Below, in pieces: positions 1 to 4,102 of a stretch of DNA of 4,102 nucleotides (within the stretch, counting starts at the first letter, position 1; the number at the start of each line of letters is the position of its first letter). The position numbers were made by a program. This DNA comes from a virus (taxonomy: Duplodnaviria > Heunggongvirae > Uroviricota > Caudoviricetes): the IMG/VR virus record IMGVR_UViG_3300029590_000219, one strand, 5' to 3'.

Positions 1-3000
1 CCTCCTTCCCCCACCGGAATGCCCTGCCCGCCAAAGCTGCTGCCGCGCGCTGGCTGCAGCCCGGCAAGCTGGACCACCAGCTTTTTGCCTGTTGGCGCGA
101 TAATGCAGCCACGTAACGCTGAACTGGTTAGTTCCATGATATTGTCAAACAGCAGGTCTGCACATCCGGCTTTCAGTGCTTCGATGCCTTCGTCTATTTG
201 TTCCTGTTTGAGTGAAGGGCGGGGAAGGTTCTGGGGCTGGAATAGCCGTCCGGCCCAACGACCGGTACGTGACGCCCCGCAGAACTGTAGCGTACCGCGT
301 AAGCGCCCGTCGTGGCTTACGCCTTTCATCAGTGCCTTGTATTTACTGGTGCTGGTAGTACTGGCCTGCAGGCGGATAGCCAGCAGTTCTTTCACGGCAG
401 ATGGTAAATCGGGGTCGGCAATACGACGTTCCAGAGTACTGCGTTGCATGTCTGGTAGCTCCACACCGTAGGATTCAACAATGTGCTTAATCAACGCGTC
501 TCGTTGTGTGGCTGCCTGCACTTCGCCATCAGTCATTTCCTGTGTACGCTTTGCCAGGCGCTTTTGTTCCTGGTCTACCGCGTCGATCGCAGCGCGTGCG
601 AGTTCCACGTCCATGCAGACGCCCCGGTCATTGATCTGCTGATCACGATGCCAGAGCGCCAGTTCTGTCCCCTGATAATTCCACTTCGGCAGACGTTTAC
701 AGACTTCGCGCATTGCCTCGATATCCAGTCCGGCGTAAGCAACAAAGCGCCGCCATTCTTCCGGGTGGGTTTTGCTGGTGGCCCGGCGCAGTTTGCTGTT
801 TTTCGGGCGTGGCTTACAGAACAGCTGGATCAGCGCTTTACCTTCTTTGTCCTTCGCTTTGTCTTGCGGGACGCCTAGTACTTCGCAGAGTTCCCCCAGA
901 GACCCCGGGAGACCGTGCGCCAGCGCCTGCACCATTGTGTCGCGCCAACGTTCGACTGGCGGTGCCAGGCGCGGCATTGCATAACGCAGGACGGTGCGGT
1001 CGAAGTGAGAGTTATGAAAATAAAGCAGGGTTTCAGGGGCTGCGATTGCTTCGTATAAGCCGTGTGGAATACCACCACCGGCAGTGATATCCCACACGTT
1101 TACTGGCCCGTCGTTGATAGCCCATGCGAACAGCATCACTTCAACGCCTTCGGCATACGCATGGGTGCCATTATTGATAGATATTTCACAGAAAGTTTCC
1201 AGGTCGCCCCATAGTATATTGGACATTGTATTTACTCCGAAGAATTAGCTACATGGATACGAAAGATATTATCTCACTTGTTGGAGTCATAATTTCAGCC
1301 ATAACTGCACCAGTCGGTGTTTATAAGTTATTTAAAGATGCTAGTTGGTTTTTACCGAAAACAACAAAATTCTCGCATATTCTGAAGAATTATCCGGAGC
1401 ATATTGAGCCTTCTGATGTAGAGTTTATGAAGGCAGAAATCAAAAGAGAAGTTAAAAAAAGTATATTAGGTATAAGTAGCCAGAAATTAAGAACGTTAGT
1501 TATTTATGTCAGAACGTATTCTGAATTGAAAATGCCGTTTTGGCAGTGGGGTTATTTAGCACCCCATATTCAGTGTAAATACGATAGATTCTTTATACGC
1601 TACAAAGGTAAATACAAACGATGTCGCTGGTGTTCTAAAGTTGTTTCTATCTTTTATTTGGCTGATGGCTTGATATTTTTCTGTTGGTCGTTAAATTATG
1701 GCGCTGTTTTTATAGGAATGAGCGCTGTTTTAATGCTGCTGTGTATATGGATGGCTTTTATGTTTTGGTTTCTTTTTCCGGGACGAGGCGTTATAAAGAA
1801 GTATAATTCCCAATTATTGAAAATAGATGCAAGTAAGTATCAGGCCAAATGATATTACAGGTCTGATACTTTGCTTTTTTTAAATCAGTGTTTTCAGACA
1901 AAACGAAGTCCTCCGTAAATTAAACGGTGATAAAAAGCCCCTGACTGAGCAGGGGCGAATTGTGGAATTAGTGTGGAAGCTGTGACGGCGGAATATATCT
2001 GCCGATGCGGTCTTCTATGGTCGGCAGAATGCACATGCTGTCGCTGAAGCGGTCATGCAGCTGGTAAACCAGTTTCGAATCCATTTTTTCGAGAGCAGGC
2101 ATTAACTGCGCCCGCCAGATTTCATTGATGCGCCGGAAGTTATGGCAGACGGCGCGGAGATTGTTGATGAACATTTCCTTCTCTGCGTCACTGACTGCTG
2201 TCTGCGCCTTCTGAATGCGTTTCGTGCTGCCGTTCCGGTAGAAGCGTTCCTGAGCAGCGACAGCCTCATCCACAGTCGGATAGCACCCGACGTAAACGCT
2301 TTTCTCTCCGTCCCATGCATAAGCCCTGTACGGATTGTATTTGCTCCGGTGATGGTAAACCATCTTCGGCAGACACTCCCTGTGTGGCGCCAGTATCGTG
2401 GAGGATTGCTGGCGAAGTTTCTTTTCGCACTCGATGAAGTATCGGCGGATCTGGCGGCCTTTTTCGTTGCGCTCCACCATCGCCAGTTCTTTGGCTGTAT
2501 CGAGAGTGAGGTGGTAGTCCTTACAAAGAACATTTTTACGCTTTCCAGTTTTGGAAAACGTTACGATATAATCCTGATTTTCAACGAATTCATAGTCTGC
2601 AATTCGTGATGTAATCCACGCTGCAAACACTTTCCCTACCCCAAGGAATGCGTGCAGATCGCGAGCATTGCAGAGCAGGGTGGTTTCGTTGGCGATAGCG
2701 CCGTTGAAAACGGGGATGAGCTGAGTTGCCATCACAGTTACCTCTAACGGTGAAATTCACCGCCACCACTGAGTTGCAAATCTCATATGGGTGGCGAACT
2801 GACGAGGTTTGCAATACCGGCGTTAGAGGAAACCGGCGCGCCGAAGCGCCCCCGCCAGCCCNNNNNNNNNNNNNNNNNNNNAAGCTTGCGACAATAAAAA
2901 AGACGCTGGCGCGTCTGGTGTCGCCCCTAACAATTCCGGGTTGCAAATCCCGATCTCCATTTGGGAGATTCGGTGAGCATAAACCGGAAGGGGGCGATGA

Positions 3001-4102
3001 GTCAATATCGGGGTAGCAGGGCGACTGGGTGCTAACCAGAACAATACAGGTAGCTCTGGGCATATTCCCCTTTGCAAAAACACCCGGCGTTTAACCGGGC
3101 GTCTGTGAAGCAGGATTAAATCAGTGCTTCAGCATCAGCACCTTCGCTGATATCGTCGAAATCGTCAGCGCTTGCCACTCCGCCGCCAGCGAATGCATCG
3201 CCGTCTCGCAGGAACTGGACTCCGCCGAGTGAGGCATTAATGCGTTTACCGAAATTATTGTCCTGTGCCCAGATATCGATAACGGCGTTTACATAGCACC
3301 CTGCATAGGGACGTCCATCAGCCTGAATCAGTGGCGAACGATCGCGATCAAGAACAGCAGGGCGCGCTTTGTTAGCAGCATTCAGGAAGAAATTACCGGG
3401 GAAGCCTTCATACTCTGCTTTTTCATCACCATCATGCAGGCACAGATTGAGTTTTTTCTCCAGCTGGTTATAAATGGACTCCCACTTCTCTCCCCATTTT
3501 TCCTTCGCTACCTGCTTCATAGCTTTACGGATTTCTTCCAGTTGTGGGTGTTTGGGTGACATTAAAAATACTGCGGAGAAACGTGGATCGCCTTCGCCGT
3601 TTACAGTTTTAGCTTCAAACAGAGACGGGAAAGCCAGACGAACATTGTTCAGCTTCAGTTTCATGGGGATTTCCTTAAATCAGATGAGGTCTGCGGTTAG
3701 CGTATCGTCGGATACGTCGTCGAAATCATTTATAGGGTTAATATTGAGTGCGGGGCGTGGGTCTGACTCGGGAACGACGGTGGGTTTACCATCAGCTCGT
3801 GTTATCAGTGCCTCGACTTTTGACCAACGGCGCGGACTGGCCTTTTTGATAAGTTTTTCGGCTTTTGTGGGGCTAATAAGTTTAAAGTCGAATACTTCTT
3901 CAGTTTTGTACCTGAACTGGTCCTTCAGAAGTGCGCGAGCTGCCTCTTCATCACTCCAGGCCCGGTTACCTTGTTTTCCTGTTACCAGTTTAAACCCCGG
4001 TACCGGATGTCCGGCATTGAGTTCATTGTGAACCCGGTCTCGTACTGCCTTTAGCCAGGATTCAATAAAGTCGGCCTGGCTATAGATCTCCGCAAGCTGC
4101 TC

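Follow-up and report, generated by a model that had tools for sequence, protein, structure and literature searches.

A probable C4/IsrK-type antisense-RNA immunity cassette in front of an antirepressor gene in a Caudoviricetes prophage sequence

The virus record IMGVR_UViG_3300029590_000219 (IMG/VR; Duplodnaviria, Heunggongvirae, Uroviricota, Caudoviricetes) comprises 4,102 nucleotides (nt), and this whole stretch of DNA is referred to here as the window. Between ant, an antirepressor gene, and the gene of a single-stranded DNA (ssDNA)-binding protein lies a region in which the palindromic hexamer TTGCAA recurs. This region very probably constitutes a phage immunity cassette of the P1 immI / Gifsy-1 isrK type, encoded on the minus strand, in which a C4/IsrK antisense-RNA switch controls the antirepressor. 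The cassette is recognized from matches to curated RNA families in sequence and structure, from complementarity among its elements, from their covariation in relatives and from its gene context; its transcription, its processing by RNase P and the direction of its regulation would follow the homologous systems. A first-pass annotation had delimited the region as 2765-3105, but the functional unit reaches lower, to the Shine-Dalgarno sequence and ATG of ant (2748-2730).

A scan against Rfam returned, on the minus strand and in the canonical order, isrK and C4, plus c4-a1b1 overlapping isrK. The isrK match (RF01394, 2969-2896) passed its gathering score marginally (50.9 against 50 bits). The c4-a1b1 match (RF03163, 2982-2933) reached 29.8 bits, under its gathering score of 46.7, because hairpin 1 of the window differs; the a1 and b1 sites themselves are present and co-vary. 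A promoter scan placed a sigma-70-like promoter at 2976-3005 (minus strand; TTGACT, an 18-nt spacer, TATGCT), from which transcription is predicted to begin at about 2969, where the isrK match has its 5' end. The TTGA of the -35 element is invariant and a -10-like hexamer occupies the same position in 14 cassettes including that of phage P1, and the promoter hexamers align with the annotated P1c4 promoter of P1. The IsrK-like leader, a short small RNA (sRNA) of about 74 nt (2896-2969, minus strand), consists of hairpin 1, hairpin 2 with the element a1 in its loop, the element b1, and an intrinsic (Rho-independent) terminator at 2916-2901 followed by a T6/U6 run. The promoter-like site and the terminator are both conserved in the relatives. 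On the RNA, a1 reads UUUGCAA (2941-2947, minus strand), whereas b1 (GUUAGGGG, 2924-2931, minus strand) is complementary, with G-U pairs allowed, to a loop of the downstream C4 RNA (duplex -11.3 kcal/mol). The suggestion of a small non-coding RNA unit between terminators comes close: the IsrK-like sRNA (2969-2896) runs from the promoter to the terminator at 2916-2901, and a second RNA, C4, comes after it. The two minus-strand terminators that were said to bracket the region are both real and about 160 base pairs (bp) apart at their inner ends, but they do not enclose one unit: that at 2916-2901 sits in the middle of the cassette, and that at about 3104-3078 belongs to the upstream gene. The extra hairpins noticed in the region are real RNA structures, namely the IsrK-like hairpins and the C4 fold.

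The C4 antisense RNA (about 75 nt, approximately 2790-2864, minus strand) was identified by Rfam family C4 (RF01695) at 2870-2787, with 47.1 bits against a gathering score of 45 and with 9 positions masked by N; in two gap-free, otherwise identical copies (L002 and L003) the score is 70.6 bits. The N run, at 2862-2881, replaces exactly 20 nt that are present in three near-identical Escherichia coli prophages (minus strand TGCCACGTTCGCATTATGGC), and judged by this comparison it behaves as a length-preserving mask, not as an assembly gap of unknown size. The concern that the gap hides part of the pattern is half justified: the run masks the 5' end of C4, but filling it from the near-identical prophages adds no further TTGCAA. 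The 5' end of C4 was placed by analogy with the RNase P site of P1 (UUAU↓GG), positions 2862-2864 and upstream being masked by N; the ends of P1 c4 were taken from the annotation of the P1 genome. The gap-filled C4 adopts the canonical fold, with a long closing stem and two internal hairpins (-43.2 kcal/mol, z -4.1). C4 RNAs are released from the operon transcript by RNase P as stable molecules of about 77 nt, and the sequence context for such processing is conserved here (5' junction UUAU↓GG, 3' end GCCACC). Across 15 sequences the closing stem is 100% paired, with 4 compensatory pairs. The first internal hairpin is only 33% paired in the same count, which is an alignment artefact, since GGCGC-UUCG-GCGC of the window is shorter than the usual GAGCC-GAAA-GGCUC of the relatives. 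Hairpin 1 of the window thus departs from the relatives in the leader and in C4 alike, and this accounts for the lower c4-a1b1 and isrK scores. In the predicted fold, the loop of the second internal hairpin of C4 contains b' (CCUCUAAC, 2822-2829, minus strand), and a single-stranded linker contains the unpaired a' (UUGCAAA, 2808-2814, minus strand), which includes the TTGCAA at 2809.

The messenger RNA (mRNA) of ant contains the matching targets. The a2 target (UUUGCAA, 2774-2780, minus strand) lies in the leader of the ant mRNA, 10 nt downstream of the C4 3' end, and the b2 target (GUUAGAGG, 2741-2748, minus strand) contains the ant Shine-Dalgarno sequence AGAGG, 8 nt before the ATG. The b'-b2 duplex is predicted at -13.6 kcal/mol, and b2 overlaps a purine-rich stretch 5-15 nt before an invariant ATG in every homologue. 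The gene itself (1968-2732, minus strand, ATG at 2732), which would be the regulated output of the cassette, encodes an antirepressor of the AntA/AntB family: the product matches Pfam AntA (PF08346, E 1e-24) and the PHROG 'anti-repressor Ant' (E 1e-51), and RefSeq names it 'phage antirepressor Ant' in near-identical prophages. A repeat search with no prior model recovered the same partners as inverted repeats, b2/b' at 2737-2749 / 2821-2833 (12 of 13 positions complementary), a2/a' at 2774-2784 / 2804-2814 (10 of 11) and a'/a1 (10 of 12). It also confirmed the exact 10-bp direct repeat GTTGCAAATC at 2773-2782 and 2940-2949, which is a1 and a2 plus flanks. In the alignment with P1 and other cassettes, three of the TTGCAA copies map to a1 (2941), a' (2809, inside C4) and a2 (2774), and they share one hexamer because the core of this allele is a palindrome; TTGCAA is the cassette's own allele of the 'a' specificity determinant. 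Where a relative has a non-palindromic allele, the outer two copies have one sequence and the copy between them has its reverse complement.

Covariation supports these pairings. The cassette alignment contained the window, P1 and twelve other cassettes, and covariation was counted over a set of 15. Pairing reaches 99% in the a'-a2 helix and 98.1% in the a1-a' helix; in either of them 4 of the 7 pairs have changed on both sides, and as many as four types of pair are seen at a single position. When the partners were slid by 1-3 columns, pairing of the whole counted structure (C4 stems plus a helix) fell from 84% to 34-54%. The predicted energies of C4-target duplexes averaged -22.7 kcal/mol with the mRNA of the same phage versus -12.3 kcal/mol with the mRNA of other phages, and the own target ranked first in 13 of 14 cases, the exception being two phages with identical alleles. 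The b elements were assessed by duplex energies and by listing the paired segments, because the b' loops vary from 9 to 12 nt and MAFFT loses the b2 register between the window and the lambdoid group. Among the cassettes the sequence of the motif is hypervariable, and it changes only in ways that keep a1, a' and a2 complementary.

An additional complementarity was observed beside a2. An invariant GGUGGUG just 3' of a2 (window 2756-2767, minus strand GGUGGUGGCGG; alignment columns about 247-253) could pair with the CACCACC, likewise invariant, that ends C4 on its 3' side. Before processing, the transcript might therefore adopt an alternative pairing, perhaps relevant to processing or to a switch like that between 'structure A' and 'structure B' of Gifsy-1.

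When phage genomes were searched with a sensitive method, the cassette turned up in lambdoid phages (Stx-converting ones and others), phiP27, SfV, PA28, Salmonella phage 118970_sal3, Hafnia phage Meifeng and Actinobacillus pPE4. In every one of these relatives isrK and C4 exceed the gathering score and an antirepressor gene follows directly, about 50 nt further downstream, and the cassette of SfV is annotated as 'immunity region'. The neighbourhood in the lambdoid and other temperate phages is unlike that of the window, being the nin region or the cI/cro/roi region, and their antirepressor families differ as well (Ant, BRO-N, Rha-like). The a and b elements vary widely from cassette to cassette and remain mutually complementary within each. 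Their alleles are also reassorted: Stx1_14040 has its a in common with ASU11 but its b with Stx2_14040, and Hafnia phage Meifeng has the UUUGCAA 'a' allele of the window with another 'b'.

The closest comparisons come from a single prophage backbone found in three states: with the cassette of the window, with a cassette of other specificity and a BRO-N antirepressor (E. coli STEC1590, L018 1353-1733), and with none (E. coli IAI1, L019 1482-1533). The cassette of an E. coli O121 prophage is 100% identical to the window from about 3020 to the ant ATG. Lysogens with the cassette of the window include E. coli LH50-c, JNEC-KY203 and STEC435. In STEC1590, the prophage backbone, promoter, hairpin 1 and terminator are as in the window, and the downstream gene encodes the BRO-N antirepressor. 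All six elements have changed together: a1/a'/a2 are UUAGCAC/GUGCUAA/UUAGCAC (TTAGCAC/GTGCTAA/TTAGCAC in the DNA) and b1/b'/b2 are UUAAGAGG/CCUCUUAA/UUAAGAGG, the only leader substitutions relative to the window being those in a1 (2) and b1 (4). In IAI1, the same replication-gene backbone lacks the cassette, and homology ends inside the terminator hairpin of the ssDNA-binding protein gene. Because the cassette is absent or swapped in the same backbone, it is an exchangeable module inserted just after that terminator.

By analogy with the known systems, the cassette would work as follows. The sigma-70-like promoter would start minus-strand transcription at about 2969, and most transcripts would probably stop at 2916-2901 to give the IsrK-like sRNA of about 74 nt, with a1 in a hairpin loop followed by b1. 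Transcripts that read through would pass C4 (about 2864-2790) into ant. C4 would be cut from this precursor by RNase P at UUAU↓GG, as in P1, and would accumulate as a stable tRNA-like fold in which the b' loop and the unpaired a' linker are exposed and could pair with a2 and b2 of the ant mRNA of the same phage or of an incoming cognate phage. Occlusion of the Shine-Dalgarno sequence would block ribosome binding, so that the antirepressor stays off and the prophage stays repressed. The elements a1 and b1 would mimic the target, sequestering a' and b' in cis in the unprocessed transcript; in the minimum-energy fold of the full read-through RNA, a1/b1 are indeed paired with a'/b' in cis, resembling 'structure A' of Gifsy-1. 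In trans, the leader sRNA may be a competitor for either C4 or the mRNA, in the manner of IsrK when it activates anrP, and could thereby relieve repression.

A bolder version of this scheme, considered unlikely, would have three RNAs in the switch: the IsrK-like leader, once terminated, would titrate C4 as a mimic of its target, with IsrK being the a1b1 element and STnc1160 being C4, and the palindromic UUGCAA would permit C4-C4 and leader-leader kissing dimers as well as direct a1-a2 pairing. If true, it would join the P1 and Gifsy-1 literatures, and the threshold for antirepressor release could differ from that of the non-palindromic alleles, which cannot self-pair.

Several observations weigh against the assignment of the region to an antisense-RNA switch that represses ant. 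The c4-a1b1 match falls below its gathering score and the isrK match is barely above its own; the a'-a2 duplex of the window allele is the weakest in the set (-6.4 kcal/mol); and a site accompanied by its reverse complement on double-stranded DNA, taken alone, also fits a protein-binding site. The two precedents, moreover, stress opposite outcomes, since C4 of P1 represses whereas IsrK of Gifsy-1 activates by way of an upstream open reading frame (ORF), and the window has neither an equivalent of that upstream ORF in place nor icd, the gene that accompanies ant in P1.

The alternative that survives best keeps the same cassette and makes the IsrK-like sRNA the main regulator in trans, as an activator that opens a silent read-through mRNA or titrates C4, with the C4-like RNA being mostly a processing product or a cis structural element. 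The isrK match and its terminator are both present, and the cis pairing of a1/b1 with a'/b' in the minimum-energy fold recalls the silent 'structure A' transcript described for Gifsy-1 (PMC4825925). However, the Gifsy-1 model needs coupling between orf45 and anrP, and the ORF that begins at the corresponding AUG in the window, unlike orf45, is only 27 amino acids long and ends 50 nt upstream of the ant ATG. The length of the orf45 equivalent is not conserved across the relatives, ranging from 3 to more than 55 amino acids, and an ORF this short and variable makes translational coupling of the Gifsy-1 kind unlikely in the window. In addition, covariation with C4 is no less strict for a2/b2 than for a1/b1, and the Shine-Dalgarno sequence lies within b2, as predicted for a repressing antisense RNA. 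This alternative is therefore considered unlikely as the principal account, although activation by IsrK and repression by C4 are not mutually exclusive roles.

A second alternative takes the TTGCAA copies as DNA operators for a local protein, for which the prophage repressor, AntA or a factor of the host might be candidates. In its favour, the copies are palindromes that cluster near a promoter. In the relatives, however, the corresponding element is non-palindromic (TTAGCAC, TCGCAG, TTGGCGT and others) and varies freely provided that the three copies stay complementary; an element that is hypervariable yet complementary points to pairing between RNAs and not to a conserved site for a protein. 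The unrelated triplet b1/b'/b2 shows the same behaviour, and two of the three copies lie downstream of the predicted start site, inside the conserved RNA fold and the mRNA leader. The copy upstream of the promoter, at 3072, shows no co-variation, and no site like a LexA box stands out: a search for CTGT-N8-ACAG with up to 2 mismatches gave 20 sites in the window versus 14.7 expected, none of them suggestive at the promoter. The operator role put forward in the first-pass annotation is accordingly very improbable, the copies co-varying as base-pairing partners within conserved RNA structures. The proposal to assay binding of the AntA protein to TTGCAA oligonucleotides consequently targets the wrong molecule; the partners are RNAs.

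That the clustering reflects chance, or a short duplication with no function, is more improbable still. A scan of both strands agrees that TTGCAA is restricted to 2774, 2809, 2941 and 3072 in the window, at irregular spacings of 35, 132 and 131 bp. The total is ordinary (4 versus 2.08 expected, with at least 4 in 29 of 200 shuffles), but the clustering is rare: of 5000 shuffles that preserved dinucleotides, 3 had four copies within 304 bp, and an equal cluster of some palindromic hexamer, out of all 64, appeared in 23 of 1000 shuffles. Against chance, three of the copies map onto functional sites of curated RNA families and co-vary in the 15 cassettes, so the idea of a functionless duplication is refuted for those three. 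For the fourth copy chance remains the favoured explanation. This copy (3072-3077) precedes the predicted promoter and falls in the U-tail that follows the terminator hairpin of the ssDNA-binding protein gene; it is outside the stretch shared with the O121 prophage and absent from the O121 copy of the cassette, while STEC1590 retains its equivalent even though a1, a' and a2 have all changed. It is probably coincidental, is not a C4 target and lies outside the system. Two candidate sites were rejected. An 'a0' site, suggested by a 15-nt repeat of 80% identity between the 3072 copy and a1, does not co-vary in STEC1590. A 9-nt repeat, CTGAGTTGC (2721-2729 / 2769-2777), looked at as a further target beside the start codon of ant, shrinks to 8 nt in the closest relatives and is lacking in the others.

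Replication-origin iterons or an incompatibility determinant, also raised by the first-pass annotation, hardly come into question: short intergenic repeats do adjoin replication genes here (ssDNA-binding protein, DUF2800 protein, DNA polymerase), but these repeats are 7-10 nt long compared with about 17-22 bp for iterons, are irregularly spaced and in non-palindromic relatives include one inverted copy, the GC content across the region is 0.50-0.52 with no AT-rich stretch, and the whole cassette is missing from the same replication backbone in IAI1 and occurs in unrelated lambdoid contexts beside ninB, roi or cI/cro.

The surroundings of the cassette are those of a prophage. Near-identical sequence (about 96%) was found in E. 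coli chromosomal prophages with an integrase, a LexA-family repressor and a replication module of DNA polymerase, DUF2800 and DUF2815 genes. All of the long genes around the region are on the minus strand. Upstream of the cassette are the gene of an Enc34-type ssDNA-binding protein (3664-3116, minus strand, Pfam PF10991) and, upstream of that, the end of a DUF2800 gene (minus strand). The intrinsic terminator of the ssDNA-binding protein gene (about 3078-3104, minus strand; -19 kcal/mol, z -4.1, then UUUUU) is outside the cassette, and its U-tail runs into the fourth TTGCAA. The N-terminal part of the DNA polymerase is encoded at 1226-3 (minus strand). A predicted membrane protein of 199 amino acids (1253-1849, plus strand) lies in a stretch with a GC content of 0.34-0.36 that is flanked by values of 0.5-0.6; Pfam and PADLOC returned nothing for it and PHROG just a weak match to a family of unknown function, and its gene looks like an accessory gene of the moron type. 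PADLOC gave no hit for Ant either. The C-terminal 160 amino acids of Ant, examined on account of the remark that the protein is AP2-like, have no Pfam hit even at E = 5; its C-terminal half (window 1971-2370, residues about 120-254) has weak PHROG hits to transcriptional-regulator and HNH-endonuclease families. No tRNA or tmRNA was found in the window.

Two further observations concern the relatives. In the O121 prophage (L003), Rfam sRNA-Xcc1 (RF02221) matches strongly at 1916-2004 on the minus strand with 72.8 bits; this match directly precedes the cassette and has the DNA polymerase gene on one side and the IsrK-like promoter on the other. In several relatives, coding sequences named 'hypothetical protein' in RefSeq/GenBank, or long N-terminal extensions of the antirepressor, overlie the IsrK-like and C4 RNA genes (L002 1684-1860; L003 1724-1861; L013 1121-1957; L005 1253-2086; L012 1127-2269), orf37 of the SfV 'immunity region' being one example. 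These are probably RNA genes annotated as protein, an error invited in the lambdoid phages by an AUG at the C4 5' end that is in frame with ant.

How does the cassette compare with the systems already described? Its likeness to immI of P1 and P7 extends over the entire order of elements, namely promoter, a1, b1, hairpin with U-run, C4, a2, b2 over the Shine-Dalgarno sequence and antirepressor, and includes the C4 fold, the UUAU↓GG 5' junction, the GCCACC 3' end and the allele-based logic of specificity. In the annotated P1 genome, the order is a1, b1, c4, a2, b2 and then the Shine-Dalgarno sequence of icd; a2 and b2 are annotated as C4 RNA binding sites that repress icd-ant translation, and they align column for column with those of the window. 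Processing of C4 by RNase P was reportedly described by Hartmann et al. in 1995, and P1 is said to couple translational repression to Rho-dependent termination, as Biere, Citron and Schuster described in 1992. In P1 and P7, synthesis of the antirepressor is blocked by C4 RNA bound to the ant mRNA in the area of the ribosome-binding site, and allele differences underlie heteroimmunity (PMC12197685, PMC8198154). C4 is catalogued in Rfam (Weinberg et al. 2010, PMC2864571). Unlike P1, the window has no icd and no ORF between C4 and ant, the ant start following 58 nt after C4, so that b2 covers the Shine-Dalgarno sequence of ant itself. Its antirepressor is an AntA-domain protein, not the Ant1/2 of P1, its 'a' allele is UUUGCAA with a palindromic core where P1 has UUGACAG, and no C1 operator was identified at its promoter. 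Whereas P1 is a plasmid prophage, the element of the window is an integrated prophage with a DNA polymerase / DUF2800 / Enc34-type SSB replication module. The cassette would work like immI without the operon architecture of P1.

The immunity system of P4 resembles the cassette in that a processed antisense RNA derives from the leader of the operon that it controls, with target repeats (seqA/seqC) on both sides. P4 CI RNA belongs to a different RNA family, however, and no Rfam match to that family was found in the window; it acts by premature transcription termination, turning off the P4 replication genes (PMC4825925), and does not control an antirepressor.

In Gifsy-1 (L017 34131-34329, minus strand), the Rfam scan returned isrK, C4 (69 bits) and c4-a1b1 (48.1 bits) in front of anrP. 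The three matches stand in the same order before the antirepressor as in the window, the leader likewise has complementarity to the C4-like region that follows it, and, as predicted for the window, there is a read-through mRNA besides the short leader sRNA that ends at the terminator. In Gifsy-1, termination of the leader gives IsrK, some transcripts read through, and STnc1160 (about 80 nt) is processed from the read-through RNA; IsrK then activates anrP translation in trans by converting the 'structure A' transcript to a translatable form (PMC4825925). In lysogens, transcription of IsrK and of STnc1160 was high in all of the conditions tested (PMC7067206). The differences from the window are low sequence identity and other alleles (the a of Gifsy-1 is UUGGCGU), and no AntQ-type gene adjoins the cassette in the window. 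The IsrK study compares IsrK with seqA/CI of P4 and makes no mention of P1 c4 (PMC4825925), and IsrK and C4 appear as two distinct systems in a review of 2025. The present comparison indicates that one kind of module underlies both the isrK locus of Gifsy-1 and immI of P1, in which IsrK of Gifsy-1 corresponds to the a1b1 leader of P1 and STnc1160 is most likely C4.

The mechanism has been known since 1990 from P1 and P7, and its current understanding is unchanged by the window: the cassette is an already-known module, with no novelty beyond a specificity allele whose palindromic core produced the eye-catching motif. For annotation, the region should read as two RNA genes plus target sites. Since the cassette would decide antirepressor synthesis, it would set part of the prophage induction threshold and of immunity specificity. 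Overall, the collected alleles point to free exchange of the a/b determinants among phages of E. coli, Shigella, Salmonella, Hafnia and Actinobacillus, including the near-isogenic swap in STEC1590, within the one kind of module that P1 immI and the Gifsy-1 isrK locus represent.

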